Shown piece by piece: positions 11,464 through 53,740 of a stretch of DNA of 64,000 nucleotides; positions within the stretch are counted from its first letter, which is position 1, and the number at the start of each line of letters is the position of its first letter. Position numbers and translations under genes: made by a program. Source of the stretch: Candidatus Methanophagaceae archaeon (GTDB lineage Archaea > Halobacteriota > Syntropharchaeia > Alkanophagales > Methanospirareceae); contig PQXC01000001.1 in NCBI GenBank assembly GCA_003194435.1, forward strand, positions 70,991 to 134,990, given 5' to 3'. The notes under the pieces are model-generated. The model was given only the letters and a program-made list of their open reading frames with translations, had not been told where the DNA came from and made no database searches.

Positions 11464-13188
11464 TTATCTTCTATCTTTTAGCATCTTCATCATCTCCTCT
11501 AACCCTCTCGTATTCACCACATCCTTCGCCTCCAGCCACCCACGCCGTGCAGTCGCCACACCATACTTTATCACATCCCGCATCTGCATCGCGTCATGGG
11601 CGTCCGTAGAGATCGCTATGGGAACACCATAATCCTTCGCCATCCTGCAATGGACATCATTCAAATCCAACCTCTCGGGGAAAGAATTCAACTCCATGAC
11701 CGTGCCCGTATCATGTGCCACTTCCATCAATCGTTCCATATCCACCTCGTATGGCTCCCTCTTGCCCAGCACACGACCCGTTGGATGCGCTATTATATCC
11801 ACATGCGGGTTCTCCATCGCCGTTATTATCCTCTTTGTCATCGTATCCTTATCCTGTGTGAACTTCGAATGTACCGCAGCAACGACCACATCCAGCTCCT
11901 TCAATATCTCATCGGGGAAGTCAAGCGAGAAATCCGACTTTATATCCACCTCCGTAGAAGACAGAACCCTGAAATTGTCAAATGTCGCATTCACTCGTTC
12001 TATCTCCTGCTGCCGCATCCTTAGTTTATCCTCGTTCATACCACCCGCAATGCCAACCGCGGGAGAGTGGTCAGCCACGGCGATATACTCATAGCCAAGC
12101 GCAATAGCAGTCTTCGCCATCTCCTCTATGCTGTTCTTTCCGTCACTCCATTTGGTATGCACGTGCAAATCGCCCCTCAAATCGCTCAGTTCTATCAACT
12201 TCGGTATCCGATTCTCCTTTGCCGCTTCCACTTCGCCACGGTCTTCCCTCAGCTCAGGCGGTATATATGCAAGACCAACACTTTTGAATACATCCTCCTC
12301 ATTCTCACCGCCTATCCGCTCTTCACCGCGAAAGATACCATATTCGTTTATCTTTAAGCCCCGCTTCACACCAAGCTCCCGTATCCTTATATTATGGTGC
12401 TTGGAGCCCGTGAAATAATGGACAGCAGCGCCAAATGACGCTGATTCCACCACTCGCAGGTCCACATCCATACCTTTCAGCACGATTGACGACTTCGTAT
12501 CTCCTTTTGCTATCACATCCTCCACACCCTCCAGGCTGGTAAACGCATCCATCACCTCCGACGGACGCTTCGAGACCACTAATATGTCTATATCACCTAT
12601 TGTCTCACGCATTCTGCGTAAACTGCCGGCAATTGTGATTCGCTCCACCGCATCCAGCTTCTTCAACTCCTTCACTATCGATTCCGCGTATGGAAGCGCC
12701 TTTGACAACAATACACGACCCTGATAACGGCGATATTGCTCTATACCCTTGAGTATGTTCTCTTCCACTTTGCGACCCAGTCCGGGTATCACACCGAGTT
12801 TGTGCGCCTTCGCCGCCGCTTCCAGCTCCTCTATGTTCGTTATTCCGAGCTCTTCATGCAGCTTCGCTATCGTCTTAGGACCCACACCCGGAATCTTCAG
12901 GAGTTCAAGCATGCCGGCTGGTACCTCTTGCTTCAGTTCCCTGTGCTTCTTGCAATCACCGGTCTGTGCGATCTCCACTATCTTCTTCGCTATGCCCTCG
13001 CCAATACCCGGTATCTTCTTTAATTCACTCACACCACCACGTTCCGCAATAACCTTCAGGTCCTGTGTTAACGTCTCTATTGTGCGAGCTGCTCGCCTGT
13101 ATGCCCTTATGCGGAACGGATTCTCACCTTTAATCTCCAGTATGGATGCAATCTCATCAAAGATACGCGCTATATCCAGGTTCACCAT
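11464..13188 (-). CDS. polX: Family X DNA polymerase (PolX) with a C-terminal PHP phosphoesterase domain.
   Basis: HhH motifs 'IPGIGEGIAKKI', 'IPGVGPKTIAKL'. Nucleotidyltransferase 'GSLRRMRETIGDIDILV'. PHP 'DLHVHTKWSDG...VADHS'. The internal Met 'MVNLDIARIF' was chosen as start to avoid overlap with the upstream gene. Confidence 0.85.
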   Translation of the reverse strand: MVNLDIARIFDEIASILEIKGENPFRIRAYRRAARTIETLTQDLKVIAERGGVSELKKIPGIGEGIAKKIVEIAQTGDCKKHRELKQEVPAGMLELLKIPGVGPKTIAKLHEELGITNIEELEAAAKAHKLGVIPGLGRKVEENILKGIEQYRRYQGRVLLSKALPYAESIVKELKKLDAVERITIAGSLRRMRETIGDIDILVVSKRPSEVMDAFTSLEGVEDVIAKGDTKSSIVLKGMDVDLRVVESASFGAAVHYFTGSKHHNIRIRELGVKRGLKINEYGIFRGEERIGGENEEDVFKSVGLAYIPPELREDRGEVEAAKENRIPKLIELSDLRGDLHVHTKWSDGKNSIEEMAKTAIALGYEYIAVADHSPAVGIAGGMNEDKLRMRQQEIERVNATFDNFRVLSSTEVDIKSDFSLDFPDEILKELDVVVAAVHSKFTQDKDTMTKRIITAMENPHVDIIAHPTGRVLGKREPYEVDMERLMEVAHDTGTVMELNSFPERLDLNDVHCRMAKDYGVPIAISTDAHDAMQMRDVIKYGVATARRGWLEAKDVVNTRGLEEMMKMLKDRR

Positions 13189-13207
13189 CTCATCTGATTC
13201 ATCACGG

Positions 13208-15070
13208 TTATCTCGGTTTCCATCTCTTATCACCGGGTTTTCTATATACTGACTTCAATGGCTCCTCGCGGGTTTCCGGATATTTCAATCTCCCGCCTTT
13301 GAACTTGAAATCGGGCGGTTTCCGCTCCGTCTCTATTAAATCTTTCGTCCTGCCCGCTATCCTGGCTTCTATGTCTTCCGCTTCCTTCTCCACTGCGCTC
13401 TTCGCTATATGCAGGTCGTCTATCTTTATCATCCCCGTTGCTGCTTCCGTTGCTGATATAAAAGCCTGTAGCTTCACACTGAGCGGCTCTATTATTCCCA
13501 CCTGGAACATATCCCTTATGCTCTTATCACGACCCGAGATACCAGCGTTCATATTACCACTGAAATGCTCCGCCCTGAGCCTCGTCAGTGTGTCTATCTG
13601 GTCCATGCCACAGTTCTTCGCTATCGCCCTCGGAATCGTCTCCAGCGCATCTGCGAACGCATCTACCACCAATTGCTCCTTACTCGGTATCCCCCGTGCA
13701 AACTTCCTCAGCCGATGGGCTGATTCAACTTCTACTGCTGCTCCGCCTGGTACCACTCTATTATCCTCGAATAATTGCGCAACTGCGTGTAAAGCGCTTT
13801 TTAGCTCCCCCACTATGCTCTCCAGAACCCTGAGTGAGGTACCCCTTATAACAATCGTTGCAGACTCTTTGCGTGGGCAGTTCTCAAAGAATACGTATTT
13901 GTCCCCTCCTATCTCTCGCTGCGACACTCTACCCGCATAGCCAAACTTGTCCGGGCTTAAGTCACTTACATCCTTAACTATCTTGGCACCCGTAGCGCGT
14001 TCAAGCCGCTCAAGATCAGTTAATTTTACACGCTTTATCAGCATTATTCCCGCATCACGGAACTTCGGCAGTGCATCAGCGTCCACACCCCATCGGCAAC
14101 ATATCACGTTTGCACCGCACTTCACTATCGGGTCTATAAGCTCATCAAAGAGTTTCGCTCTTGTGTCATGGAACTCACGGAGATGCGACGGCTTTGAGAT
14201 TTTCACATGGAAATCGAGTGCACCTAATGTCTCTCCTGCTTTACTTCGCTCTCGGGCAGGCATACCGGTGGGTAACTCTTTCCTGCCTTTTATCTTCGGC
14301 TCCGGGTGCTCAATCGGGAAGTCAAGGAGCGCTATCTTAGCATCTCTCACATCGCTCGGTAGAGCATCCAGTACTTCGCGGTCCACAACTACGCCCTCAA
14401 AGAACCGTGTCTCATTTACTTTGCCACCGCTCTTTGCCTCTATTGCAATATCATCCACATCTATATGCCTGTTCTCGCTCTCGCTTTTGCTTTTGCTCAA
14501 TCGCCTGATGCTCTCTACCACCACATCTGCCAGTATATCCTCGTCACAAAACTCACCCTTCTTAAGCGCGGTCTTTGCTACACGGTGCAGGATCTCAGTG
14601 CCAGCCTCGTCTCTTATATCCACCGTGGTTGCCATCTCCTTCAATGTCTCTTTCACAAATCCAAGTGCACGCTCATAGCCGTCCACCACGATATTTTGAT
14701 GCACCCCCGCTTTCCGTAGCTCGTATCCCCTCCTCACCAGCTCCCCTATCAGAATCATCACCGTGGCTATACCATCACCCACCCGTTCGCCCTGCGTCAG
14801 CCCGGCAGTAATCAATATATCAGCGGTTGGATGTGTGTACCTCAGCTCCTTTATCAGGCTGTAAGCATTACTTGATATAAGGTCTGCAGCTTCTACCTTC
14901 GTTGCTCCCTGGGTTATCAATATCTTGGACCCAAAGGGACCGATTACCGGCTTGAACATATCGGAGAAAGCCGCGCAAACCATCATATTCGTCTCCTGAA
15001 TCTCCTCCGGCGGCACTTCCCCTGGCGGTAACTCATCCTTTATCATCTCTATCCTATCACCATTAACCAA
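13208..15070 (-). CDS. Divergent group II chaperonin (thermosome/CCT family) paralog with an extra basic C-terminal tail.
   Basis: 'VIGPFGSKILI' (vs LGPKGMDKMLV). 'GDGIATVMILIGELV' (vs GDGTTTAVVIAGELL). 'VVPGGAAVE' (vs VVPGGGAVE). 620 aa, ending 'KFKGGRLKYPETREEPLKSVYRKPGDKRWKPR' rather than a GGM tail. Confidence 0.7.
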   Translation of the reverse strand: MVNGDRIEMIKDELPPGEVPPEEIQETNMMVCAAFSDMFKPVIGPFGSKILITQGATKVEAADLISSNAYSLIKELRYTHPTADILITAGLTQGERVGDGIATVMILIGELVRRGYELRKAGVHQNIVVDGYERALGFVKETLKEMATTVDIRDEAGTEILHRVAKTALKKGEFCDEDILADVVVESIRRLSKSKSESENRHIDVDDIAIEAKSGGKVNETRFFEGVVVDREVLDALPSDVRDAKIALLDFPIEHPEPKIKGRKELPTGMPARERSKAGETLGALDFHVKISKPSHLREFHDTRAKLFDELIDPIVKCGANVICCRWGVDADALPKFRDAGIMLIKRVKLTDLERLERATGAKIVKDVSDLSPDKFGYAGRVSQREIGGDKYVFFENCPRKESATIVIRGTSLRVLESIVGELKSALHAVAQLFEDNRVVPGGAAVEVESAHRLRKFARGIPSKEQLVVDAFADALETIPRAIAKNCGMDQIDTLTRLRAEHFSGNMNAGISGRDKSIRDMFQVGIIEPLSVKLQAFISATEAATGMIKIDDLHIAKSAVEKEAEDIEARIAGRTKDLIETERKPPDFKFKGGRLKYPETREEPLKSVYRKPGDKRWKPR

Positions 15071-15869: not shown

Positions 15870-16658
15870 TTAATTAACATTCTCTTTCTCACCACCTCCG
15901 CCTTCGTATAGTTCCTCGATCAAATCAGCGTACTCCACAACCAGCGATTTACTAAGCTGCGTTATGAATGAAGTCTCTTCTACCGACAATCCTTTCTTAA
16001 GGCAGAATCGCACACGGTCGAAATCGCCGAGATATCTATCGACGGCGCTGGGACTGTGATGAGTTTCCCTTGCGATGTCCGGCGTAGCTTTTTTAGCCCG
16101 GAGCGATTTTTCACAGATGATCTTTTTATGCGTTGTGCTTCTACCCAGGTCATGTACGGTGCCCCTGCGTGGCAGCACCACGTTGTTCTCACGTTCGTAT
16201 TCAGTGATATTCTCGTGAATAGTCATGTTGGAGCACGAGAGGATGAGTGATAGGTCAGTCTCAGCCAGCGTTCCACCTTGCTTGTCCGCTTCACGTAGCA
16301 TCCTTGCAATAGCACTCTTTCGAATCTCCTTCTGTGGAACGCTCTCCGCCCTCTTCTTGATGTCTTCATAAGTGACCGCCGATAGGACAACGGGACGCAA
16401 TCGGAGATTCTTCATGCACTTCCCATACCCTCCTTTCTCCTCTTTTGCCACTGCGAACCAGAGCATCTGCCCCATTCTGAGATTCGTTATCGGTGGATAG
16501 TACTGCTCAACGATGGACTTCAGTTCCTTGACCAGCAGTCCGATGACCTTCGGTCCGCCCAACTTCGGGAATTCAGCCGATATGAAGCTGGATACCGCGG
16601 TTTCAAACGTTTTATCCAGCAGCGGTGCATAGATGCTCTGCCGTGTATTCATGCTCAA
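15870..16658 (-). CDS. DUF1670-like HTH-containing protein (paralog 1 of a tandem pair).
   Basis: 262 aa. HTH-like 'GGTLAETDLSLILSCSNMTIHENI'. C-terminal block 'HSPSAVDRYLGDFDRVRFCLKKGLSVEETSFITQLS' parallels the upstream paralog. 4-nt overlap with it. Confidence 0.45.
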   Translation of the reverse strand: MSMNTRQSIYAPLLDKTFETAVSSFISAEFPKLGGPKVIGLLVKELKSIVEQYYPPITNLRMGQMLWFAVAKEEKGGYGKCMKNLRLRPVVLSAVTYEDIKKRAESVPQKEIRKSAIARMLREADKQGGTLAETDLSLILSCSNMTIHENITEYERENNVVLPRRGTVHDLGRSTTHKKIICEKSLRAKKATPDIARETHHSPSAVDRYLGDFDRVRFCLKKGLSVEETSFITQLSKSLVVEYADLIEELYEGGGGEKENVN

Positions 16659-17482
16659 TTTGTCGCCCCCCTTTTACACGGCTCACGATCCACGGAGTTC
16701 AACGCCAGTATCTCGTCTAATCGGTCTTTGTACGCCCGGTCACCTTTGTATTTGCGGTATAACGCCTGGTAATCACGTGTCAATCGCTCTGAGACCTGGA
16801 CGAGAAAAGCGATTTCTTTCGTTGTGTATCCCTTTTCTGTAAGATACGCAACACGGGAGAAAGTCAGGATATAGCGCTTGATCGCCGTTAAAGAGTGTTT
16901 CAGTCTCCTTTCAATCTCAGTGTAGGTTCTTCGCTCCATGAAAAGCCTGACGGCTTCTACCTTGTGTGATACGCCTGGACCGATGTCTTTTTGCTGCCCT
17001 CGTGTTGGAACGATCACGCCGCGCTTTGCAAGTGCCTTAATGTCTCGCCTTACCGTTCTGACACCGCAATTCAAGAGCTTTGCTGCAATGTCCTCCTGTG
17101 TGAGCGAGACTCCCTGGTCCCAAGCTTCATGTGCAACTCTGGCGAGCCTTGCCTGACGAAGAGCAGCAAGCCCATACTTACTCCGGATTTCTTCATCTTC
17201 TTTCCCTGCATCGAGCGTTACCACCGCCGTTTTCATCTCACACTTGGCTAATGGCTTCCCTGCAGGTTCTGATGCGGCAATTCCCAGAACCTTCAACTGC
17301 CCCACATTCATCACGGTCGGATTGCTCTGTTCTGGTATGAATACCGATTTCGCTGTCTCTAATATGGCGTTGGATACGAACGGTGGGCATTCGTATCCCT
17401 GTTCCACCATATTGACGAACATCTGGTCGAGCGTTTTTGCATTTAACCTCTCAGATGCACTTCTATTCTTATCCCCTTTCAT
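16655..17482 (-). CDS. DUF1670-like HTH-containing protein (paralog 2).
   Basis: 275 aa. HTH-like 'LTQEDIAAKLLNCGVRTVRRDIKALAKRG'. C-terminal 'HSLTAIKRYILTFSRVAYLTEKGYTTKEIAFLVQVS' is collinear with paralog 1. Confidence 0.45.
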   Translation of the reverse strand: MKGDKNRSASERLNAKTLDQMFVNMVEQGYECPPFVSNAILETAKSVFIPEQSNPTVMNVGQLKVLGIAASEPAGKPLAKCEMKTAVVTLDAGKEDEEIRSKYGLAALRQARLARVAHEAWDQGVSLTQEDIAAKLLNCGVRTVRRDIKALAKRGVIVPTRGQQKDIGPGVSHKVEAVRLFMERRTYTEIERRLKHSLTAIKRYILTFSRVAYLTEKGYTTKEIAFLVQVSERLTRDYQALYRKYKGDRAYKDRLDEILALNSVDREPCKRGATN

Positions 17483-25481: not shown

Positions 25482-26042
25482 TTGGTGATGAGCGATAAGC
25501 ATAACGAAGGACTATCCATAGAGGAGAAGATATGGAAGCTCAGCGAGCTCCATGAGCTGCTGCCACTACACAGGGTATTACTCGGGCATGATGGTTCAAT
25601 GACGCTACTGCTGGAGTTAATTGTATGCAGTGAAGTTGAACTTGCTACAATCAGGCAAACGGTGGTGCCATGCCCGGAAGGCGCAGCAGAGTTACTCGGT
25701 GTTGATGCGGGTGTAGCGGCAAATGAGCGCGATATCATCATTATGAAGAAGAGCGATAGAACGCCACTGCTTTATGCACGGTCTTATACACCACTATCGA
25801 GGTTGAAGCCCGAGTTTAAAGAAGACATGATGAAAGCAGATATCCCGATAGGCAGGATAATGCAGAAGTACAGAATAGAAGCGCGGCGGGAGATACTGGA
25901 TGTGGGCTATCTGGAGCGTGAACATCGGCTGGAATCACTACTGCAGTGCACAGCGCCATTCCTATGGCGGATATACAATATAATCACCGGTGGTAAAGTA
26001 TTAATAACAGTAAAGGAGTTTTTCCCGGTCTCGTTACCTTGA
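25482..26042 (+). CDS. Chorismate-lyase-like (UbiC fold / DUF98) protein.
   Basis: 186 aa. 'LLGHDGSMTLLLE' block resembles the UbiC-family DGS.T..LE signature. Weak call. Confidence 0.35.
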   Translation: MVMSDKHNEGLSIEEKIWKLSELHELLPLHRVLLGHDGSMTLLLELIVCSEVELATIRQTVVPCPEGAAELLGVDAGVAANERDIIIMKKSDRTPLLYARSYTPLSRLKPEFKEDMMKADIPIGRIMQKYRIEARREILDVGYLEREHRLESLLQCTAPFLWRIYNIITGGKVLITVKEFFPVSLP

Positions 26043-26699
26043 ACGTGTTACACCAATTCGCTTACAGTATTGATAAACCGGGCAAATACTGCACCTGGGA
26101 CTCAGTGGCGTGCATACGCTCCTGCCATGCAGTACGAATAGCTCATTGAGGATTATCCAGTTCTGTTCGGGTACAACCCTGCGTAATGCAAATTCGGTCT
26201 CATTCGGGTTCCTGGTTGCAACGATGCCCATGCGATTGGATATGCGATGTACGTGCGTATCAACAGCGATACCGGGTTTATTATAGCCAATTGTGAGTAC
26301 TATATTTGCGGTCTTTCGACCCACACCCCGAAGCTTCAGGAGTTCATCCAGCTCATCTGGCACCTTAGAGTTATATCGCTCAACCAGAATAGAGCAGATC
26401 TCAACGATTTGCTTCGCTTTCCGGTGATAGAACCCCACTGGATATATTGCAGACTCTATATCGTCAATTCTGAGTTTTAGCATCTCTTCGGGCGTCTTCG
26501 CTAACGAGAACAAGCGCTCTGCCGCTTTTAATGTCACTTCATCATGGGTTCTCAGACTCAACAGGCATGAAATGAGTGTCAGAAACGGGTCGCCCCTCGT
26601 TGCAGGCGCCATAAGTAACGAGCTCCCCGCACGGTATCGCTTCTTCAATATCTGTATCACCTTCTCTACATCTGTATCTGTGCCCGTATCCGTATCCAT
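26034..26699 (-). CDS. nth: Endonuclease III (HhH-GPD DNA glycosylase with a 4Fe-4S cluster).
   Basis: HhH 'LLKLRGVGRKTANIVL'. GPD region 'VDTHVHRISNRMG'. C-terminal C-x6-C-x2-C-x5-C 'CTPLSPRCSICPVYQYC'. N-terminus starts with a Thr/Asp repeat (TDTGTDTD). Confidence 0.8.
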   Translation of the reverse strand: MDTDTGTDTDVEKVIQILKKRYRAGSSLLMAPATRGDPFLTLISCLLSLRTHDEVTLKAAERLFSLAKTPEEMLKLRIDDIESAIYPVGFYHRKAKQIVEICSILVERYNSKVPDELDELLKLRGVGRKTANIVLTIGYNKPGIAVDTHVHRISNRMGIVATRNPNETEFALRRVVPEQNWIILNELFVLHGRSVCTPLSPRCSICPVYQYCKRIGVTRSR

Positions 26700-28182: not shown

Positions 28183-28692
28183 TCATGACCGAAGCATAAT
28201 AGCAGGAATCCAGTCATAATAAACTTTCCCGTTCGCATCCACGAACTCAGAGCAGTTTATCCAGCCGTTTGGTGTGAGTAAGGATGTGTTATGGTGGATC
28301 TGTGGATACGAACCTGTGCGGATGGTGTAGTCGTATGTTTCGTTGGGTAAAAGAACAACGGTCTTGTCGAAGGTGATGTTATGCCAGTCGCTTGCGTAAC
28401 CTTCCCAGGTTGCGGTGGCGTTCCATGTTTTGTTCCAGATGCGAGCATATTCGGTATGCCCGCCTGTGCCTGCGCATGGATATGTGTAAAGTTTGGTTAC
28501 GATAATTGTTTGGTTTGTCGTGATTGTGCCGTTGTGCGTGCCTGCTATTGAAGGATATGGATTTGAGGTGTGCCGGTGTTGAAGACTTTTAATGCTCCTG
28601 AAGTGGTAAATATTATACTCTGAACTCTCTGCCGAATTCCCACTTTGGTCTGCGCCGTTTACAACGAAATAATAACAGTTGCCTGGTAGCAA
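28183..28692 (-). pseudogene. 5'-truncated fragment of an FN3-PKD surface-protein paralog. Retains the end of the FN3 domain plus the shared sequon-rich C-terminal domain and lacks the PKD domain.
   Basis: 'YYFVVNGADQSGNSAESSEYNIYHF' parallels 'YYFVVKSVDLSGNSAESSEYSFTT' of the 42858 gene. C-terminal 'NPYPSIAGTHNGTIT...YDWIPAIMLRS' is near-identical to the 42858 gene C-terminus. In-frame stop immediately upstream. Confidence 0.55.
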
Positions 28693-28897: not shown

Positions 28898-29368
28898 TCA
28901 TGTTTCACCTCGATTGACTGATTCGTTCTTTTCTGGGACTGGGTCTATCACATCAAAATTCTCTATTTCCTCAATCTTTGATCTCAATTTTTTAAATGCC
29001 CCGTCATGCGTCATTATTTCATTCACACCGTTCATAACCATTGTAGCCAATAAAACCGCATCTCTGCCTCCTATTCCATAATTCCAATATTTGGATAGCA
29101 GTTTGAGTGCTTTCTGCATCATATCATAATCAAAATCGAGTAATTCCAGTGATCTTAGCCTTGAAATATAGTTTATGTCTTCCCAAAATTCGTTTTCTGG
29201 CTCATGGCGAACAAGATAGTGCGCTACTTCCTGAATAACAATTGTATTTGCCAATATCCCTTCTTCTCCCATGATAATTCTTCTTATTGGTTCTTTAACA
29301 TATTTGTGCTCTTCTAAGCTTTCATCAAAATAATATATCCACATGTTGCTATCTATCATTATCATCAA
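28898..29368 (-). CDS. vapC: PIN-domain ribonuclease toxin VapC.
   Basis: 'MIDSNMWIYYFDE' (first acidic residue). 'VIQEVAHYL'. 'GGRDAVLLATMV'. 'IMTHDGAFKKL'. This is the PIN acidic quartet pattern. 4-nt overlap with the upstream vapB. Confidence 0.75.
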   Translation of the reverse strand: MMIMIDSNMWIYYFDESLEEHKYVKEPIRRIIMGEEGILANTIVIQEVAHYLVRHEPENEFWEDINYISRLRSLELLDFDYDMMQKALKLLSKYWNYGIGGRDAVLLATMVMNGVNEIMTHDGAFKKLRSKIEEIENFDVIDPVPEKNESVNRGET

Positions 29369-29598
29369 CGCATCTTCCAGATACTTTTGATCTCTTCTGG
29401 AGTAATGGTTTTATTGCCACTTTTTATCTTTCCTTCCATTCTTTTGACGAACTCTTCTGGACTGATTAAAGGCAAAAGCATTATCTTTTTACCTTCTTTT
29501 TTAATTTCGAGCTCCTCTCCAGGTTTTAGGTATAACTCTTCTCTTATCTTTTCTGGAATTTGAATTCTTCCTTTTTCGTCTATGACTGCTATTGCCAT
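29365..29598 (-). CDS. vapB: AbrB/SpoVT-fold antitoxin VapB.
   Basis: 'MAIAVIDEKGRIQIPEKIREELYLKPGEELEI' swapped-hairpin motif. 77 aa. Immediately upstream of vapC. Confidence 0.7.
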   Translation of the reverse strand: MAIAVIDEKGRIQIPEKIREELYLKPGEELEIKKEGKKIMLLPLISPEEFVKRMEGKIKSGNKTITPEEIKSIWKMR

Positions 29599-29745: not shown

Positions 29746-29943
29746 TCATGATAGTTTAATAGCGGGAATCCAGTCATAATAAACTTTCCCGTTTGCATCC
29801 ACGAACTCAGAGCAGTTTATCCAGCCATTCTTTGTTGGCAGTGCATCAGTGTGGTGAATTTGCGGATAAGAGCCCGTCACTATCGTTATATTGTATGTCT
29901 CATAAGGCATTAATATCACTGTTTTATTGAAATAAATGTTCAT
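29746..29943 (-). pseudogene. Short 3' fragment of a beta-helix surface-protein paralog (last ~65 aa of the shared C-terminal domain) with its 3' flank conserved.
   Basis: 'YNITIVTGSYPQIHHTDALPTKNGWINCSEFVDANGKVYYDWIPAIKLS' matches the C-terminus of the 39379-41742 gene, including the '...IPAIKLS' ending. The ~80 nt downstream (29681-29760) matches the sequence downstream of 41742. Confidence 0.55.
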
Positions 29944-30107: not shown

Positions 30108-32870
30108 TTACCCCTCCAGCCTCACCCAGCTCACACCGTCCGCATCCTCACTCACCCTCAGCACGTACTCCATATAATCCTTCACATCCTCTATATGCGT
30201 AATAAGCAGAATCTGCCTGAACTTCTTTGACAACTCACTCAGTGCTGTTATGATATTCCTCTTTCGAAGCATGTCCTGCGAGCCGAATATCTCATCGAGG
30301 ATGATGAAATTGGTTTGAGTTGCACTCCTCTCCGATACAACTGCGGAAATAGCCAATCGAAGACAGAGATTCGCAAGGTCCTCCTCACCGCCTGAGAACC
30401 TGTTCAGCTCATACGCAGTACCATCCTCACAGATGAAGACTTCATAATTCTCATCCAGCTCGAGCCTGCTGTACTTGCCATCCGTCAGCCGCCTCAGCAT
30501 ATCTGATGCATAATCTGCGAGCAATGGACGGATCATACCTACCATATACACCTTGAAATCGTTCATTATCTTCTCAAGCAGATTTAAATACATTATATCC
30601 TCCTCTTCCTGCTCCTTTTCTTTTATTAGCCGTTCCTGCTCCTCTATATCCGCCTGCACACGCGCTCTCTCACTGCACAGGTTCTCAAATTCGTGCTTCT
30701 TGCCCATGAGCTTTAACTTCACCTCGCTCAGAGCCTCACTCTCGCGTTCATACCTCGATTTCAACTCTACATACGCCATTTTATCAAATGCCAGCCCCTC
30801 TACCTGCTTCTGTAATGCCGTTATCTCATCCACAATCCCGCGTTCCTCATCACGCAACTCCTGAATGCTGGACTTCACCACCTCTATCCTCTTTATCTCG
30901 GCTTTTAACCCTATTATCTCGTGATATACCTGCTCAAGTTCTTTTAATTCCGATATAACAGTATTATATTCATTCTCATTGAACTCAACATCAGCAACAG
31001 ACTTCAAATCGCTCTTTATCTGCTCCAACTCCTTATGCCAGCGTTGCAGCTCACGTTCTTCATGTGCCATCCTCACCTCTAACTCCCTCTTGGCTCTCAC
31101 ACGCTTCTCAAGTTCGTTTATTTTCGCTATTACACCTTTATAACGATTATCATCAAATTCAACCCCTTCCAATGGCTTCAAAGTGGCTAAAAGCTCCTTC
31201 AATTCCTCATGCCAGCTATCCAATTCCCGATTCTCCTGCTCTATCTTTGTATCCAGCTCTCTTCGCATGTTCACACGCTTCTCAAGCCCCTGCAATTGCT
31301 TTGTGAGCGACTCCTCAAGCTTACCCTTTGAAATAAGTTCCTGTTTCTTGCTCTTGTACTCATTGAATACCATAGAGAGCTTTTCCTTACTGCTTCTCAG
31401 CTCTTCATTCAGTTTCTTTATCAAGAACTCATAATGGGTTCCTAATTGCCGCTCGCATAGCGGGCACTCGCCTCCAGGACCCAGACTTTCTATCTGTTCT
31501 ATCTTCTCCCTGTTCGCCTCTATATCGCGCTTAATCTGTATTGCTCTCGTTTTATAACCGCCAATTGCGGAATGCAACCGCTCTTTATCGCGCCTCAGCT
31601 CTTCTATCTTACCCTTCACCGCCTCCAGTTGCGCATCAGCATCCTCAAACATGCGCCTATCTGCCTTTAAACGCTCGATCTTAGCTTCTCTGCTCTTTAT
31701 CTCCCGCATTGCTCGCTCTTTTCGCCTCATCAGCTCTTCTTTCTGGTGATACCGGTCACGTAGCTGCTCCAGCTCGTCCTTGAGACGCATCTGTGCATCG
31801 AATAAATCCTCTACACCCCTGAACTCCGCTATTTTAGCTTCCAGTTCCTTTATTAGTGCTTTTCGCTGTTTTATCTCTTCCACAGTCTTCTCTTGCCGCC
31901 CTGTCAGCTCTATCTTATGCTGGTAGCGATTCCGTAGCTGTTCCAGCTCGGTTTTGCGCGCTTTATACTCGAAATACCGCTTTTCCTCTGCCTGTATAGC
32001 CTGAAGCCGCTTTTGCTTCTCAATCAATGCAGCAAGCTCCTTCTCCTTCTCCTCCCGGCTCTTCCGGATGTTCTCCAGGTAGCTCCTTCGCTCGCCCAGC
32101 ATATTGGTCAGCTCCACGTATCTCTCATATTTCTCAGTTGCGAGTTCCAGCTCATGCTTCGTTGCCAGAACTACACGCTCCTTCTCCTCTTTTTCTGATT
32201 CTATCTCCTTTATAAGCGGTATAATAGACTCTTTATCCTTATCCAGCTCCGCCCTCTTTGTCTGAAGTAATTCTATCTTCTTCCTGCCTTCTTTATCCAC
32301 AATTGCTGCTTTTATACCCTCTATCTTCTTCTCCTTGCCTCTTCTATCCTCCCTTAGCGCCTGTATGCTATTCTCTATCCGTTCAATGCCAAGCATACGC
32401 AACATGAGCTTCTTTCGTTCCGCAGCCTTCATTGTTGATAGCGCATTCAACTCCTTCTGTCGCGCGAAGACGGAAGTGAAGAATGACTGGTAATCCATGC
32501 CTATTTTATGCTCCAGCACTTCCGTCACCTCCTCCGCATTGCTGGTGATGAGTTTTCCATTGATAACAAGCTTCGCTTTTGGCATCAGATTCCTGCCCGC
32601 CATCTCTCTTACCACTTTATAGTAGTCGCCACCCAGCTCAAACTCCAGCTCTACCTGGCATGGCTCATGTGGTGATGCACCTCTGCGTTTTATAAGCTCC
32701 TTAGTTGTTCGTGCAGCATGATGCCCGAATAGAACCCAGCCTATTGCCTCCACCAGTGTCGTCTTACCCACTCCATTCAGTCCAATGATTCCAATCACGC
32801 CATCAGGGAACTCTATACATGCGTTCTTATATTTGCGATAATTTCGGAGTGTAAGCGTCTTCAGCAGCAT
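30108..32870 (-). CDS. Rad50/SbcC-like SMC-family ATPase with a central zinc hook. Orphan: no Mre11/SbcD partner adjacent.
   Basis: Walker A 'GLNGVGKTTLVEAI'. Long coiled coil. 'GGECPLCERQLG' CxxC hook in the mid-coil. Signature 'FSGGE'. Walker B 'FIILDEIFGSQD'. H-loop 'LLITHIED'. 920 aa. Confidence 0.75.
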   Translation of the reverse strand: MLLKTLTLRNYRKYKNACIEFPDGVIGIIGLNGVGKTTLVEAIGWVLFGHHAARTTKELIKRRGASPHEPCQVELEFELGGDYYKVVREMAGRNLMPKAKLVINGKLITSNAEEVTEVLEHKIGMDYQSFFTSVFARQKELNALSTMKAAERKKLMLRMLGIERIENSIQALREDRRGKEKKIEGIKAAIVDKEGRKKIELLQTKRAELDKDKESIIPLIKEIESEKEEKERVVLATKHELELATEKYERYVELTNMLGERRSYLENIRKSREEKEKELAALIEKQKRLQAIQAEEKRYFEYKARKTELEQLRNRYQHKIELTGRQEKTVEEIKQRKALIKELEAKIAEFRGVEDLFDAQMRLKDELEQLRDRYHQKEELMRRKERAMREIKSREAKIERLKADRRMFEDADAQLEAVKGKIEELRRDKERLHSAIGGYKTRAIQIKRDIEANREKIEQIESLGPGGECPLCERQLGTHYEFLIKKLNEELRSSKEKLSMVFNEYKSKKQELISKGKLEESLTKQLQGLEKRVNMRRELDTKIEQENRELDSWHEELKELLATLKPLEGVEFDDNRYKGVIAKINELEKRVRAKRELEVRMAHEERELQRWHKELEQIKSDLKSVADVEFNENEYNTVISELKELEQVYHEIIGLKAEIKRIEVVKSSIQELRDEERGIVDEITALQKQVEGLAFDKMAYVELKSRYERESEALSEVKLKLMGKKHEFENLCSERARVQADIEEQERLIKEKEQEEEDIMYLNLLEKIMNDFKVYMVGMIRPLLADYASDMLRRLTDGKYSRLELDENYEVFICEDGTAYELNRFSGGEEDLANLCLRLAISAVVSERSATQTNFIILDEIFGSQDMLRKRNIITALSELSKKFRQILLITHIEDVKDYMEYVLRVSEDADGVSWVRLEG

Positions 32871-32918
32871 CTATCAACTTTTTCAACTTTTTATAATATG
32901 AATTTTAACTTAAACATT

Positions 32919-34412
32919 ATGGTTATAACTGAGTCAAGAACAGTGAAGATACTGGATACTACGTTGCGTGACGGTGAGCAGACTCCTGGTGTATCATTGA
33001 CACCGGAACAGAAACTGCAGATTGCACGGCAGCTTGACCTCCTTGGGGTTGATATCATCGAGGCGGGTACAGCAATCATCTCAGAAGGTGAGCAAAGGGC
33101 AATCAAGTCAATAGCAAGAGCAGGTTTAAGAGCAGAAATAAGCTCTTTCGCTCGTCTATTACGCGGTGACATTGATGCTGCAATTGATTGTGATGTTGAC
33201 ACCGTGAATTTAGTCGCACCGGTCTCTGACGACCACATAAAGAAGAAATTGAAGATAGACCGGGAAACGCTGCGAAGGATGACGATGGATGCAGCGGAAT
33301 ATGTGAAAGAGCATGGCTTGAAGGTGGAAATAAGTGCTGAGGATGCTTCAAGAGCCGATATGGCGTTTTTGAAATCGCTATTCACTGAACTCTCAGATGC
33401 AGGTGTGGTTGACCGCCTGTGTTTCTGTGATACTGTGGGTGTGCTGTATCCAGAGCGAACGAAGGAGATATTCAGTGCTCTCAGCGATTTAAGTACGCCC
33501 ATCTCGGCTCACTGCCATAATGACTTCGGACTGGCAACTGCTAACTCGATTGCTGCTGTGCTGGCAGGTGCTCAGGTCGTACACGTAACGGTAAATGGCA
33601 TGGGAGAGCGAGCGGGTAATGCGTCACTGGAAGAGGTGGTTACTGCGCTTGACCTGCTTTATGGTGTGAAGAGCGGGATAGTGAAGGAGAAGTTGTATGA
33701 GACTTCTCGATTGGTACGGAACGTGACAAAGATGCCGGTTGCACCAAACAAGCCGCTGATGGGTGATAATGCATTCACACATGAATCGGGGATGCATGTG
33801 CACGGAACACTGGCAGATACGAGTCTATATGAGCCTATGGACCCGGGTCTAATAGGCAGGAAGAGGCGATTTGCGTTTGGGAAGCATACAGGTAGGGCAT
33901 CAGTGAAGATGGCACTGGAAGAGATGGGTATCACTGCTGATGACTCAGGGATGGAGAAGATACTGTCAAGGGTGAAAGAACTCGGCGATAAAGGTAAATT
34001 GGTCACTGATTCGGATTTCCAGGCGATTGTGGACGATATACTGCATATAGAGCGAAAGGAGAGGATAAAACTACTTGACCTGTCTGTTGTCTCTGGCAAG
34101 AATATATATCCAACGGCATCTATAAGATTGGAGATAGACGGAGAGGACAAAGTGGAGGCGGGCGTTGGCGTGGGTCCAGTGGATGCAGCGCTAAATGCAC
34201 TGCGAAAGGCGATGTCTGGTTCGGAGATGAACGATCTGCGACTTGAGGAGTACCATGTGGATGCTATCACCGGTGGCACTGATGCACTGGTGAATGTCGT
34301 GGTGAAGATGAGCAGAGGAGACAGGACGATAACAGCGAGTGGTGTAAGCGAAGATATAGTCCTCGCATCAATGCATGCCATGATTAAAGGTATCAACCGA
34401 TTATACAGTTGA
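32919..34412 (+). CDS. (R)-citramalate synthase / 2-isopropylmalate synthase family (CimA/LeuA).
   Basis: 'ILDTTLRDGEQTPGVSL' DRE-TIM N-terminus. 'HCHNDFGLATANS'. C-terminal LeuA-dimerisation-like regulatory domain. The ORF continues upstream to 32898, but Met 'MVITESR' was taken as start to leave a promoter gap. Confidence 0.8.
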   Translation: MVITESRTVKILDTTLRDGEQTPGVSLTPEQKLQIARQLDLLGVDIIEAGTAIISEGEQRAIKSIARAGLRAEISSFARLLRGDIDAAIDCDVDTVNLVAPVSDDHIKKKLKIDRETLRRMTMDAAEYVKEHGLKVEISAEDASRADMAFLKSLFTELSDAGVVDRLCFCDTVGVLYPERTKEIFSALSDLSTPISAHCHNDFGLATANSIAAVLAGAQVVHVTVNGMGERAGNASLEEVVTALDLLYGVKSGIVKEKLYETSRLVRNVTKMPVAPNKPLMGDNAFTHESGMHVHGTLADTSLYEPMDPGLIGRKRRFAFGKHTGRASVKMALEEMGITADDSGMEKILSRVKELGDKGKLVTDSDFQAIVDDILHIERKERIKLLDLSVVSGKNIYPTASIRLEIDGEDKVEAGVGVGPVDAALNALRKAMSGSEMNDLRLEEYHVDAITGGTDALVNVVVKMSRGDRTITASGVSEDIVLASMHAMIKGINRLYS

Positions 34413-36869: not shown

Positions 36870-38168
36870 ATGAAGTGGCTGAATAGAATCACAGGCAGAG
36901 GCAGAGCTGTAGCTGAAATACCCTCTATTGTAGCGTTCCATGAGATAGATACATGGCTGGAGAAGGTTTCTGAGTTGTTATTCCGTGGTCTGGGCACGAA
37001 TGCGATGGCACTGTATGAAGAGATAGCGGATAAACGTGAGGAACTCAAGCAATACATCTCTGAATTGCGTGATGCTGAGCCGAAGGCGGATATGCCTGCA
37101 CAGATTACAAAAATAGGACTTCTGAGCCGTGACAAAATGGTAAAGCTCCTTTATTCTCTCTGTGATAAGATAGTCATACCATCTCAAACGGACTATAAGA
37201 CTGTTCTGGATTTCCATAAGATGGCTTCTCACAATATAGAATCGGTACTGGCGAAGCTATCTAAGAATATTTATTATGTTCGCTCGCTGTTCCCTGACGA
37301 AGCCAGGGAAGTTGAAGCCAATCTCAATCAGCTGAGAGACATTCTCAACCGACTGATAGCGCCGATGAAGGGCAAGGAGAGTAAGATTATGGATTTGAGT
37401 CGTGTACATGCATTGATACAGAGAATAAGAGAACAGATGGCGGAGATAGAGTCAGAAAGGGAGGAGATTCGAGCAGAAGAGGAGGAGCGATCAGCCATCG
37501 AGCACGAAATAGAGCTATCAGAGCGGAGATTACGAGCGATAGAAGAAGAATCGGAATGGAAACGGCTAAAGGAGTATGAAGCGGAACTAACAGCCGTAGA
37601 GGAGGAACTGAACACGCTAAGTCACGGTATAAATAATCTGTTTACTCCTTTACAGAAGTCACTCAGCCTGCTGAAGAAGCAGGACAGGTCCGGGCGGGTT
37701 AGTCTTTCACCCGCTGTAAGAAAGGCGGTAACAGCCATTCTGTCATCTCCGGTTCAAGCGTTGAATGAGGACGAGGACATAGAGGATTATCTCCGGTCTA
37801 TAAGGGCAGTAATCCTTGAGATGGACGCTCTGAAGGAACGCACGCGAGACAGAGCACTGAAATGGATAGACCATCTCCTGAATACCGATACCGACCTGCC
37901 GGGTATCAGGGCGAGGTATGAGCTTTTATCATCAAGGGCAGAGGAGCTCAGGCGTGAACTATCAGCATTGGAGATAACGAATGAGAAGGAGCGGCTCGAA
38001 CACGCTATTACAGCAGCTAAAGGGCAACTCACTCGCCTGGATGATTTAATAGCTAAGAGGAGACGGGGCATAGAGTTGCAGAAGAAAGAACTGGCAGCGA
38101 AAGAGATAATGCTCCAGAAAGAACTGGAAGAGATTACAGGTAAGAGGATAGAGGTCAAGTTTGAATGA
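36870..38168 (+). CDS. Hypothetical coiled-coil protein (432 aa).
   Basis: Heptad-rich, E/R/K/L-dominated central region ('EREEIRAEEEERSAIEHEIELSERRLRAIEEESEWKRLKEYEAEL'). No enzymatic motif. Confidence 0.4.
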   Translation: MKWLNRITGRGRAVAEIPSIVAFHEIDTWLEKVSELLFRGLGTNAMALYEEIADKREELKQYISELRDAEPKADMPAQITKIGLLSRDKMVKLLYSLCDKIVIPSQTDYKTVLDFHKMASHNIESVLAKLSKNIYYVRSLFPDEAREVEANLNQLRDILNRLIAPMKGKESKIMDLSRVHALIQRIREQMAEIESEREEIRAEEEERSAIEHEIELSERRLRAIEEESEWKRLKEYEAELTAVEEELNTLSHGINNLFTPLQKSLSLLKKQDRSGRVSLSPAVRKAVTAILSSPVQALNEDEDIEDYLRSIRAVILEMDALKERTRDRALKWIDHLLNTDTDLPGIRARYELLSSRAEELRRELSALEITNEKERLEHAITAAKGQLTRLDDLIAKRRRGIELQKKELAAKEIMLQKELEEITGKRIEVKFE

Positions 38169-49566: not shown

Positions 49567-50913
49567 TTATGCTTCTTGCTTCTTCTCCTTCACTTCTGAA
49601 ATCGCTTCCCCATCCCGGAATAAGATTCTTAGCATGTCACCGGTCGTGATATCCATCACACTCCTCACCACCTTTTGTTCCTTCAAGCAGATACTATAAC
49701 CCCGTTCGAGGATTGCTCGCGGACTTAAAGCATCCAGTTTACCGGTAAGAGCCTGTAAGCCCTTCTTGTGTAGCTGCACACGATGCATAACCTCTGCAAT
49801 CAGGGTCCTCTTCAGTTCATCCACCATCTGCCGATATTGGTTTATCCTCTCGGTGGGCTTTCTGAACAGGACGTTCTTTTCTATACTCTCAAGTCTCCGC
49901 CTTTGCTGCTCTATCATCTTGTAGATGTTCTGCCGCAGTTGCAGTTCAAGCGTACTCAGATTCTTCTCTATCTGCCGCTTATCAGGCACGACCAGCTCAG
50001 CAGCTTCTGATGGTGTTGCCGCTCGCCGGTCTGCAACGAAATCCGAGATGGTGAAGTCGGTTTCATGCCCCACTGCCGATATTACAGGTATTTCAGATGA
50101 GAATATCGCTCTTGCTACACTCTCCTCGTTAAATGCCCACAGCTCTTCTATTGAACCACCACCTCGTCCCACCACGAGCACATCCACCTTCTTAAGTTCC
50201 CTATTCACACGATTCATCAGCTTGATGGCATTAACAATCTGAGGAGCGGCTTCTTCGCCCTGTACTGCTACCGGTGCCAGCAGGATATGCACATGCGGGA
50301 ATCGCCGCCTCGTGATGTTTATCATATCACGGATGGCTGCACCGGTAGGGGAGGTGATAATGCCTATGGTATGGGGAATAACCGGTATCGGCTTCTTATG
50401 TGCGGCATCGAACATGCCTTCGTCCTTAAGCTTCTTCTTCAACTGCTCAAAAGCTCGATATAGCGCACCTATACCCGACTCCTGCAGCTCTTCTACATAC
50501 AACTGATACCTGCCCCGTTTCTCATACACGCTTATATGCCCCCGGACTATCACACTCATACCATCTTCAAGCGTGAATTTCAGTAATGCATTCCTATCAC
50601 GAAACATCACACACCGCAGCTCTGAATATTCATCCTTGAGTGTGAAATAGACATGCCCGGAAGTGGGTTGACTCACATTGGAGAGCTCTCCCTTTACATA
50701 AATATCCCTTAATAACTCATCACTATCCAATTTCTGCCTGATGTAGCGCGTTATTTCCCATACAGAGTATATACGAGTATGAGTTTTTTCTTTTTCTTCT
50801 CCGTCTCCTACTTCTCCTTCGCCCGGTACATCTTCCTCTATCACCGCAGCAGCAGTATCATCTTCTTTCTTCAGATGCAGGAAGTCCAGTAGTGTTATCT
50901 TTGGCTTTACCAT
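49567..50913 (-). CDS. xseA: Exodeoxyribonuclease VII large subunit.
   Basis: OB-fold N-terminus 'YVKGELSNVSQPTSGHVYFTLKDE'. Catalytic core 'VLVVGRGGGSIEELWAFNEE'. Coiled-coil C-terminus. 448 aa. No xseB-sized ORF adjacent. Confidence 0.8.
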   Translation of the reverse strand: MVKPKITLLDFLHLKKEDDTAAAVIEEDVPGEGEVGDGEEKEKTHTRIYSVWEITRYIRQKLDSDELLRDIYVKGELSNVSQPTSGHVYFTLKDEYSELRCVMFRDRNALLKFTLEDGMSVIVRGHISVYEKRGRYQLYVEELQESGIGALYRAFEQLKKKLKDEGMFDAAHKKPIPVIPHTIGIITSPTGAAIRDMINITRRRFPHVHILLAPVAVQGEEAAPQIVNAIKLMNRVNRELKKVDVLVVGRGGGSIEELWAFNEESVARAIFSSEIPVISAVGHETDFTISDFVADRRAATPSEAAELVVPDKRQIEKNLSTLELQLRQNIYKMIEQQRRRLESIEKNVLFRKPTERINQYRQMVDELKRTLIAEVMHRVQLHKKGLQALTGKLDALSPRAILERGYSICLKEQKVVRSVMDITTGDMLRILFRDGEAISEVKEKKQEA

Positions 50914-52678: not shown

Positions 52679-53740
52679 GTGATACATATGATAGAGATAG
52701 ACGGTTCAGTAGGAGAGGGGGGAGGGCAGATAGTAAGAACCGCAATCGCTCTTGCTGCTATAACCGGGCAGGAAGTGGAGATAAGGAACATAAGAGCTAA
52801 TAGACCCAATCCTGGTCTTGCAGCACAACATCTACATGCCGTTAAAGCAGTAGAGAGATTGTCAGGCGGTAAGACTGAGGGGCTGCAATTGCATTCCCAG
52901 AAGCTGAAGTTCTCACCTGGCGATTTGAAGTGCATCAATACTGAGCTGGATATAGGTACCGCAGGTAGCATAACATTGTTATTGCAATGTCTTATCCCGG
53001 TTGCATTGTTCGCGGATTGTGAGAGTGTGGTGAGGGTAAAAGGTGGAACAGATGTGAGATGGGCTCCCCCGATTGATTTCTACACAGGTGTATTCCTGAA
53101 AGCTCTGAATGCTATGGGCTGTGATATCCAGATTGATGTGAAGCAGCGGGGTTATTATCCAAGGGGTGGAGGGTTGGTAGAAGTGCGAATATCACCTCTG
53201 GATGGTACGCTAAGAGGGTTTAAACCTGAACCAGAGCAGCAGGGGCCAGAACCAGAGAGCAGAATGGTAGTAAGTGGCATCTCGCATTCCCGCGGTCTGC
53301 CCGCACATGTAACAGAGCGGCAGGCGAGAGCAGCGGAGCAGGTATTGCATGATTACGGCTACAGCGCTGCAATAGAGTTAGAGCGTGATGTGGGCGATAA
53401 AACGCCATCAGGAGCAGCATCAACTGGCAGTGGCATTACCCTATGGCTGGGCTATAAGAGCGGCAGTGCACTTGGTAAGCCAGGAAAGAGAGCGGAACTC
53501 GTGGGTGAAGAAGCAGCTCATGAGATAATAAAAGAACTGAATTCCTCTTCCACCGTTGATATACACCTCGCTGACCAGCTTATACCCTATATTGCTCTTG
53601 CGGATACCGGTTCAGAGCTGAAGGTCAGGGAGATGACGGAACATCTCAGGACGAATATATACGTGACGAAGAGATTCCTGGCTGATATCGAGTTTGAAGT
53701 TATAAAGAGCAGTGATGTGGTGGTAATCAGGAGAGAATAA
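52679..53740 (+). CDS. rtcA: RNA 3'-terminal phosphate cyclase.
   Basis: 'MIEIDGSVGEGGGQIVRTAIALAAITGQ' N-terminus. Adenylation His region 'LADQLIPYIALA'. 353 aa. Confidence 0.85.
   Translation: MIHMIEIDGSVGEGGGQIVRTAIALAAITGQEVEIRNIRANRPNPGLAAQHLHAVKAVERLSGGKTEGLQLHSQKLKFSPGDLKCINTELDIGTAGSITLLLQCLIPVALFADCESVVRVKGGTDVRWAPPIDFYTGVFLKALNAMGCDIQIDVKQRGYYPRGGGLVEVRISPLDGTLRGFKPEPEQQGPEPESRMVVSGISHSRGLPAHVTERQARAAEQVLHDYGYSAAIELERDVGDKTPSGAASTGSGITLWLGYKSGSALGKPGKRAELVGEEAAHEIIKELNSSSTVDIHLADQLIPYIALADTGSELKVREMTEHLRTNIYVTKRFLADIEFEVIKSSDVVVIRRE

Follow-up and report, generated by a model that had tools for sequence, protein, structure and literature searches.

A Rad50-family zinc-hook ATPase encoded apart from Mre11 in ANME-1 and Syntrophoarchaeum genomes

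A 64,000-nucleotide stretch from a Candidatus Methanophagaceae archaeon (assembly GCA_003194435.1, contig PQXC01000001.1, forward-strand positions 70,991 to 134,990), which we refer to in its entirety as the window, encodes on its minus strand a 920-amino-acid (aa) Rad50-like bipartite ABC ATPase with every head motif present and no mre11 gene nearby. The reading that we favor, with about as much confidence as doubt, is that this is a housekeeping Rad50-family DNA-tethering ATPase, vertically inherited, genetically uncoupled from Mre11 and probably a second Rad50 paralogue. An initial annotation, made from the window alone, had noticed the orphan ATPase beside a toxin–antitoxin (TA) islet and had proposed a role in defence or mobile-DNA surveillance; the observation is real, and the defence interpretation is not supported. 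Studies of Rad50 nearly always include Mre11, and the two proteins are nearly always encoded together. In the lineage described here, which spans two archaeal orders, the gene has stayed intact with a complete catalytic core although no nuclease gene is linked to it, and it would offer a natural system for asking what Rad50 does alone, be it tethering, end protection or chromosome organisation. Below, L-numbers name the loci compared and P-numbers name proteins.

A complete Rad50-type ATPase

The open reading frame (ORF) starts with ATG, and the features of its product, read from the translation unless another source is given, are as follows.

30108-32870, minus strand: coding sequence of the 920-aa Rad50-family ATPase (ORF list, full-length match to a Rad50 model, intact orthologues in 48 other genomes)
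30108-30110, minus strand: stop codon of the ATPase gene
32760-32783, minus strand: Walker A motif (P-loop) GLNGVGKT, residues 30-37, with K36
31455-31466, minus strand: zinc-hook motif CPLC, residues 469-472, at the coiled-coil apex
30384-30398, minus strand: ABC signature FSGGE, residues 825-829 (RFSGGE, 824-829)
30291-30308, minus strand: Walker B motif FIILDE, residues 855-860 (D859, E860), followed by the D-loop residue D866
30195-30197, minus strand: H-loop histidine H892, the histidine of ITH in LLITHIED

The motifs named in the initial annotation (Walker A, a CxxC hook, FSGGE and Walker B with the H-loop) were thus all found in the translation, to which we add the Q-loop residue Q138. 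In an alignment of the window protein with its orthologues, K36, Q138, C469, C472, S826, G827, D859, E860, D866 and H892 are invariant in 49 of 49 sequences.

Family models place the protein in the Rad50 group. Pfam assigns SMC_N across residues 3-913, together with AAA_23 and AAA_15; SbcC_Walker_B is just below threshold (25.8 bits against a gathering score of 27), and Rad50_zn_hook is also below it (18.3 against 24.3). Among NCBIfam models, the one for archaeal Rad50 (NF003034) gives the top full-length match, with 199 bits over positions 1-877 of its 878, and all other scores are lower: SbcC 96, ASRP 92.5, arcadin-4 47.7 and SMC 41 bits. The 199 bits fall short of 700, the curated NCBIfam cut-off for the Rad50 equivalog. 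Rad50s that are linked to mre11 fall equally far below, with 150-166 bits in Thermoplasmata, 143-150 in Nitrosopumilus and 195 for P0089, all under the equivalog cut-offs, so a score of this size does not mark a deviant protein; because genuine operon-linked Rad50s of Thermoplasmata and Nitrosopumilus fail it too, the equivalog criterion is too narrow for these lineages. The Syntrophoarchaeum orthologue reaches 270 bits on Rad50 models. An exact-sequence look-up of the window protein found no record.

The nearest solved structures are the Rad50 heads of Methanocaldococcus jannaschii and Pyrococcus furiosus (E = 3e-35), and archaeal Rad50s of these species (PDB 3AV0 and 5F3W; PDB 1F2U and 3QKS) share with the window protein the bipartite head, the coiled coil, the CxxC hook and the overall length. 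An AlphaFold2 (AF2) model contains a confident antiparallel coiled coil, with a predicted local distance difference test (pLDDT) score of 70-90, and head regions of low confidence; at the apex, a non-helical loop (residues 464-478) sits between helices 411-463 and 479-567. The protein therefore has the long coiled coil with a CxxC hook that is expected of the family, and zinc binding is predicted. By sequence, its closest relatives outside its own lineage are the ~700-810-aa Rad50s of Thermoplasmata, Methanomassiliicoccales and Nitrosopumilus, and operon-linked Rad50s align with it at ~31-40% identity and 360-490 bits.

The same scores bear on whether the protein could be a chromosome-organising zinc-hook substitute for SMC, like coalescin (ClsN) and other ASRPs or like arcadin-4, and not a repair factor. 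SMC proteins of condensin carry a hinge domain instead of a hook, are ~1150 aa long and have ScpAB partners. The window protein has no hinge domain, and its 41 bits on the SMC model TIGR02169 compare with a cut-off of 729. ASRPs, which include ClsN and Sph1/2, resemble it as archaeal stand-alone zinc-hook SMC-superfamily ATPases without a nuclease partner (PMC9389158), ClsN and its kin being, like the window gene, core genes. They differ in being ~590 aa long and forming a clade distinct from Rad50, and the 92.5-bit match to NF045487 (cut-off 300) lies mostly in the coiled coil. Arcadin-4 (Rkd4, of Pyrobaculum) is a proposed Rad50-derived protein outside an Mre11 context and hence a precedent for a new role (PMC9389158); here the match of 47.7 bits stands against a cut-off of 860, and arcadin-4 belongs to the arcade cytoskeletal cluster, whereas the window gene has no conserved neighbours. 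Some loci do place the ATPase gene beside histone and replication genes, and no SMC, ScpA or ScpB appears among the rows listed of an ANME-1c gene table (PMC9539880), although those rows cover only part of the table and do not establish that SMC is absent. With the Rad50 score far above those for ASRP, arcadin-4 and SMC, we regard a chromosome organiser of this kind as improbable.

Conservation and the missing Mre11 linkage

The closest proteins to the ATPase, among the best 120 listed, come from metagenome-assembled genomes (MAGs) of ANME-1 (Methanophagales), range from 98% down to ~46% identity and are all full length. A pattern-based scan of one genome per GTDB species found a single copy in each of ~48 ANME-1-type genomes, ANME-1c (Methanospirareceae) included; two Syntrophoarchaeum genomes followed, at 35-37% identity, ahead of Thermoplasmata, Methanomassiliicoccales and Nitrosopumilus, whose Rad50s match at 31-35%. 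Every extracted orthologue (48 of 48) is an intact ORF. Conservation is 83-94% in the heads and at the coiled-coil base and 44-79% in the remaining coiled coil, the base (0.87-0.92) being on par with the ATPase core. Ratios of nonsynonymous to synonymous substitution (dN/dS) against five orthologues are 0.12-0.18 overall and 0.06-0.12 in the heads, and in a neighbour-joining (NJ) tree the ANME-1 family is monophyletic in 100 of 100 bootstraps. Together these values describe a functional core gene that is inherited vertically and kept under purifying selection. The initial annotation had suggested checking whether the gene belongs to the flexible genome; it is instead intact in all ANME-1 lineages sampled as well as in Syntrophoarchaeum.

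Across these genomes the ATPase gene stands apart from mre11. Pfam analysis of 40 ORFs of the window found no Mre11, HerA or NurA, and an Mre11 profile hidden Markov model (HMM) gave zero matches at E ≤ 10 among all window ORFs of at least 50 aa, in agreement with the initial annotation, which had seen no Mre11/SbcD, HerA or NurA gene beside the ATPase. The closest outgroups are genuine mre11–rad50 operons: mre11 lies directly upstream of rad50 in 30 of 30 outgroup loci, and in L010 and L011 a gene for a 375-379-aa Mre11/SbcD overlaps the rad50 start by 4 bp. With the Mre11s of these two loci as tblastn probes and as a profile HMM, none of 61 stretches of the stand-alone type (818 kb from ~50 ANME-1 and Syntrophoarchaeum genomes) matched the profile at E ≤ 10. 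Unlike classical Rad50, then, the ATPase is never encoded next to mre11, in the window or in any of the ~50 genomes (0 of ~50 against 30 of 30 outgroup loci). It also differs in having its own predicted promoter and a dimorphic arm length (804 or 920 aa), and in that its family coexists, in ANME-1c, with a separate nurA–herA–mre11–rad50 operon.

Two candidates for a hidden nuclease link were considered and set aside. The Syntrophoarchaeum-type protein (885-894 aa) might have been a classical operon form; the gene upstream of P0400 (894 aa), however, encodes a glycosyltransferase, as in the Syntrophoarchaeum loci, and the locus gives no Mre11 signal. A 267-aa metallophosphoesterase encoded 2 kb downstream in L001 might have replaced Mre11, and proved to be a TIGR00024 (MJ0037/PdeM-like) protein found at that one locus only. 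An Mre11 profile search of a database of 5.8 billion proteins returned, among the 120 matches listed, only Thermoplasmata- and Asgard-type proteins and is not informative on ANME-1.

Published ANME-1c data supply the second Rad50. The MAG of Ca. Methanoxibalbensis ujae (ANME-1c) carries on one contig a transcribed, classical nurA–herA–mre11–rad50 cluster, with NurA MW690_000525/526, HerA 000524, Mre11/SbcD 000522 (411 aa) and Rad50/SbcC 000520 (898 aa) (gene table of PMC9539880). Supplementary tables of other ANME papers held no relevant entries, or only partial domain matches within unrelated large proteins. Because no ANME-1 protein of ~898 aa is among the best 120 relatives of the window protein or of P0102 (the Syntrophoarchaeum protein), the M. 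ujae operon Rad50 represents a more distant, classical lineage. The 804-aa form of the stand-alone gene is present in other genomes of the ANME-1c family (L060, L090 and L091), and the classical operon and the stand-alone gene therefore coexist at the level of that family. As both kinds occur there, the likeliest reading of the window gene is a paralogue or a xenologue rather than 'the' Rad50, which is also what makes a second paralogue the most likely reading more generally.

The ATPase could instead be the organism's sole Rad50, with mre11 moved elsewhere in the genome and the two proteins forming a normal Mre11–Rad50 break-repair complex. The canonical mre11–rad50 operons of its closest outgroups, its head and coiled-coil base, which are strongly conserved and similar to those of linked Rad50s, its single copy per genome in the pattern-based scan, and the generally poor conservation of ANME-1 gene order, with contexts that vary by lineage, all fit a displaced mre11. 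What speaks for a separate paralogue is the 898-aa rad50 that an ANME-1c species keeps beside mre11, herA and nurA, which gives the ANME-1c Mre11 a co-encoded partner in a family where the stand-alone gene also exists, and the 818 kb of flanking DNA without any Mre11 match. On balance we consider a displaced mre11 unlikely, while still the most serious of the alternatives to a second Rad50.

Several points weigh against that second-Rad50 reading. The coiled-coil base is the Mre11-binding region in known Rad50s; in the stand-alone family it is as conserved as the ATPase core and resembles the base of operon-linked Rad50s, which would fit continued binding of an Mre11 encoded elsewhere. The coexistence of the two kinds of gene rests on different ANME-1c genomes, at family level and not within one genome, whereas the window belongs to the ANME-1a/b clade. 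An exclusive clade of ANME-1 and Syntrophoarchaeum, finally, receives only 20 of 100 NJ bootstraps. On this last point, P0102 used as a query finds, after its own small clade, the ANME-1 family as best (414-491 bits), with operon-type Rad50s at no more than 396; these scores, together with cimA synteny (described below), support one orthologous stand-alone lineage in ANME-1 and Syntrophoarchaeum.

A second Rad50 of this kind would descend from an mre11-linked Rad50, be specific to ANME-1 (Methanophagales) and Syntrophoarchaeales, and have been uncoupled from the nuclease gene before these two groups split. The conserved anatomy suggests how it might work. The N- and C-terminal halves of one chain would form the bipartite ATPase head, ~300 residues per side would fold back into the antiparallel coiled coil, and the CPLC apex would share a zinc ion with a second protomer to give a dimer. 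ATP binding, through K36, Q138, S826, D859/E860, D866 and H892, would then clamp two heads on DNA, such that the protein, acting without a co-encoded Mre11, could hold or tether ends or duplexes of DNA while double-strand breaks are repaired or chromosomes maintained. Rad50 identity, conservation, copy number, purifying selection and lack of linkage are observed; that the protein tethers DNA, binds zinc and is independent of Mre11 is predicted from sequence.

Arm-length dimorphism and the promoter region

ANME-1 orthologues come in two lengths, ~804 or ~920 aa, and never ~862 (n = 46). The difference lies in two 58-residue units, one in each arm of the coiled coil.

31659-31832, minus strand: N-arm 58-residue unit, residues 347-404, a tandem copy of the coiled-coil segment next to it, missing in the 804-aa form
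31077-31250, minus strand: C-arm 58-residue unit, residues 541-598, a tandem duplicate of the adjoining segment, missing in the 804-aa form

Compared with 1000 shuffles, the duplication scores z = 11 in the N arm and z = 18.9 in the C arm, with z = 0.7 for the control comparison of N arm with C arm, and the C-arm duplication is also visible in the DNA as an internal repeat. The two blocks are placed roughly as mirror images on either side of the hook, for which reason both antiparallel strands would be expected to lengthen together. The AF2 model breaks the N-arm helix at 351-352 and 407-410 and the C-arm helix at 568-573 and 626-631; the breaks of each pair are ~57-58 residues apart, which equals one break per unit. 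The outgroup Rad50s are 798-809 aa long, which makes 804 aa the probable ancestral length.

Long and short forms are intermingled in the tree: the heads of L038 (920 aa) and L041 (804 aa) are 97-98% identical, and L017 and L040 are 94% identical. The paired change in the arms has therefore arisen several times, or alleles recombine between lineages. The dimorphism amounts to a natural experiment on what constrains the length of a coiled-coil arm, in which both arms change jointly by one 58-residue module. It also allows a bolder and more tentative proposal, in which the family is a lineage-wide, Mre11-free Rad50 paralogue acting as an autonomous zinc-hook DNA-tethering ATPase, its reach tuned by repeated, joint gain or loss of the module in both arms. 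A similarly tentative extension is that it acts alongside NurA–HerA–Mre11–Rad50 in thermophilic members and instead of it in mesophilic members.

Upstream, the ATPase gene faces the divergent gene 32898-34412, a cimA/leuA-type HMGL synthase by Pfam and NCBIfam, and the start codons of the two ORFs are 27 bp apart (window 32871-32924). One element stands out between them.

32888-32897, no strand assigned: AT-rich TATA-like element, ATTATAAAAA on the ATPase strand, conserved in L001 and L016

This element, the only AT-rich one (TTTTTATAAT, 32888-32897), lies ~22 nt upstream of the ATPase ATG; its distance to M8 (32919), an ATG inside the cimA ORF at which cimA probably starts, is 26 nt. Judged by archaeal promoter architecture, the element is the probable promoter of a leaderless, monocistronic ATPase mRNA, so that the gene would be transcribed alone, and one bidirectional TATA region may serve both leaderless genes. 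A sigma-70 promoter scan was set aside, the host being an archaeon.

The rearranged 3′ flank and neighbouring genes

Downstream of the ATPase gene lies an islet with vapB (29365-29598, MazE/AbrB type), vapC (28898-29368, PIN) and two paralogous ORFs without a Pfam match, 28183-28692 (169 aa) and 29746-29943 (65 aa). The shorter repeats the C-terminus of the longer in truncated form, and the two share ...NGWINCSEFVDANGKVYYDWIPAI. The flanks thus agree with the initial annotation, which had divergent cimA upstream and a vapBC/remnant islet downstream, and a comparison with a 98%-identical relative fixes where the islet begins.

30107/30108, no strand assigned: synteny breakpoint, where blastn homology with L001 runs out on the final base of the stop codon

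The window aligns with L001 from 35862 to 30108 at 96.6%, over part of a gene for a 776-aa protein, cimA and the entire ATPase gene, and then the alignment ends; beyond the breakpoint, the sequences of the window, L001 and L013 are all unlike one another. As homology stops right at its stop codon, the ATPase gene borders the variable islet and does not lie within it: it is on the conserved side of a rearrangement hotspot, outside the vapBC islet. This location fits a 2026 report that TA loci are hotspots of structural variation in ANME-1 (PMC13385816).

Elsewhere in ANME-1 the neighbours are housekeeping genes, such as SecY, TBP and hdr; enolase, PGDH and leuCD; gatB and ribosomal S19e; MutL, PolB and histone; or NAD kinase and glycosyltransferases. 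When all ORFs within 4 kb were clustered, no conserved neighbour emerged, any one family being present in at most 9 of 48 loci, and the neighbours that do recur reflect clade-specific synteny. In the clade of the window, cimA adjoins the ATPase gene in the window, L001, L002, L013, L014 and L016, and in Syntrophoarchaeum (L006 and L058) it is 2.5 kb from the orthologue.

These results tell against the idea that the protein serves as the ATPase in an anti-phage or anti-plasmid system like Lamassu (LmuB), MADS (mad3), PbeC/DndD or Wadjet. Such systems do have SMC- or Rad50-like heads, and their PADLOC models match the window protein at 50-104 bits (LmuB 104, mad3 95, then PbeC, AriA and DndD); the gene adjoins a vapBC islet of a kind that marks structural-variation hotspots in ANME-1 (PMC13385816), and TA pairs flank it in two other lineages. 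The matches are generic, however, because Rad50s linked to Mre11 score the same on LmuB and mad3: 113 and 105 bits for P0114, 82 and 84 for P0089, and 77 and 74 for a Nitrosopumilus protein, with an LmuB range of 67-113 bits on true Rad50s. The comparison with defence-system HMMs that the initial annotation had recommended thus lends its proposal no weight. The DndD and PbeC matches are weak and partial (25-65 bits), and JetC (Wadjet JetC/MksF) is not among the best 25 of 39 PADLOC matches.

Partner genes are missing as well. The neighbours are cimA, vapBC and ORFs without a Pfam match, with no LmuA effector or LmuC beside the ATPase and no JetABD, dnd or pbe genes found nearby; no window neighbour matched a system-specific partner model in PADLOC, where the only neighbour match was a generic one, of the EndoIII gene (26034-26699) to a type II nicking-endonuclease model. 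In viral-contig, phage and plasmid collections the family is absent, and only distant, generic SbcC-type matches occur, often with an adjacent SbcD. The IMG/VR contigs L092, L093 and L096, for example, carry distant SbcC/Rad50-like genes with Mre11/SbcD directly upstream, complete viral SbcCD-type pairs that are unrelated to the ANME-1 family.

Defence and mobile genes are generally patchy in distribution, carried on mobile elements and found inside variable islands. The ATPase gene shows none of this: it is universal in its lineage, single copy and vertically inherited, has the low dN/dS given above, sits among housekeeping genes and ends before its islet begins. We therefore consider a defence role highly improbable. 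Of the observations that the initial annotation had said would count against its proposal, a conserved core context in relatives was largely found, in that the gene is present throughout and shares cimA synteny over two orders; its own fallback, an extra housekeeping paralogue, is the reading that the evidence favors. For annotation practice, an orphan SMC-like ATPase beside a TA islet is insufficient for a defence call, and PADLOC matches of ~100 bits to LmuB or mad3 can arise from ordinary Rad50s.

The 3′ flank of the ATPase gene looks like a recurrent site of insertion or rearrangement. In L024 (11073-12440), an ORF for a 398-aa pentapeptide-repeat/K-channel-like protein directly follows the ATPase gene and overlaps its last ~30 nt, and after this ORF comes a remnant of the last ~36 codons of the ATPase gene, the footprint of a 3′-end insertion. 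The islet of the window was considered as an integrated element that had likewise duplicated the 3′ end of the gene, and this was rejected: neither a remnant nor a flanking repeat exceeded chance, and no tRNA lies nearby. Homologues of the two islet ORFs without a Pfam match are found again close to the ATPase gene in L018, L024 and L027, three further lineages of ANME-1, which makes them, by sequence, members of a multi-copy ANME-1 family to which Pfam assigns no function.

TA pairs lie at most 2 kb from the ATPase gene in three unrelated lineages: HepT/MNT in L003 (14733-15547), BrnT/BrnA in L007 (7329-7863) and VapBC in the window (28898-29598). Their proximity probably just reflects the high density of TA loci in ANME-1 (PMC13385816). 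A 432-aa coiled-coil protein (36870-38168) was weighed as a partner and dismissed as residual synteny, as it occurs only in L003/L004 and L013. In GCA_025464145.1 (L002, 8420-9925), DNA homologous to cimA (84% identity) is annotated as two ORFs of ~200 aa on the opposite strand without Pfam matches, which suggests that the genes were miscalled or that cimA is disrupted there.

The window also holds other genes of DNA metabolism. The plus-strand gene 53836-55806 encodes a 656-aa protein of the non-homologous end joining (NHEJ) type, in which a Ku70/80 beta-barrel domain is fused to an ATP-dependent DNA ligase (adenylation and OB domains); proteins of the NHEJ type are generally uncommon in archaea. 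Further repair and replication genes are those for PolX-PHP (11464-13233), EndoIII (26034-26699), XseA (49567-50913), RtcA (52679-53740) and NrdD (56417-58714). On the minus strand, the large subunit of DNA polymerase D (DP2, 58847-63664) carries an intein with a LAGLIDADG homing endonuclease at about residues 888-1354, and two adjoining paralogous DUF1670 genes (15870-17482) encode proteins of 262 and 275 aa with helix-turn-helix motifs.

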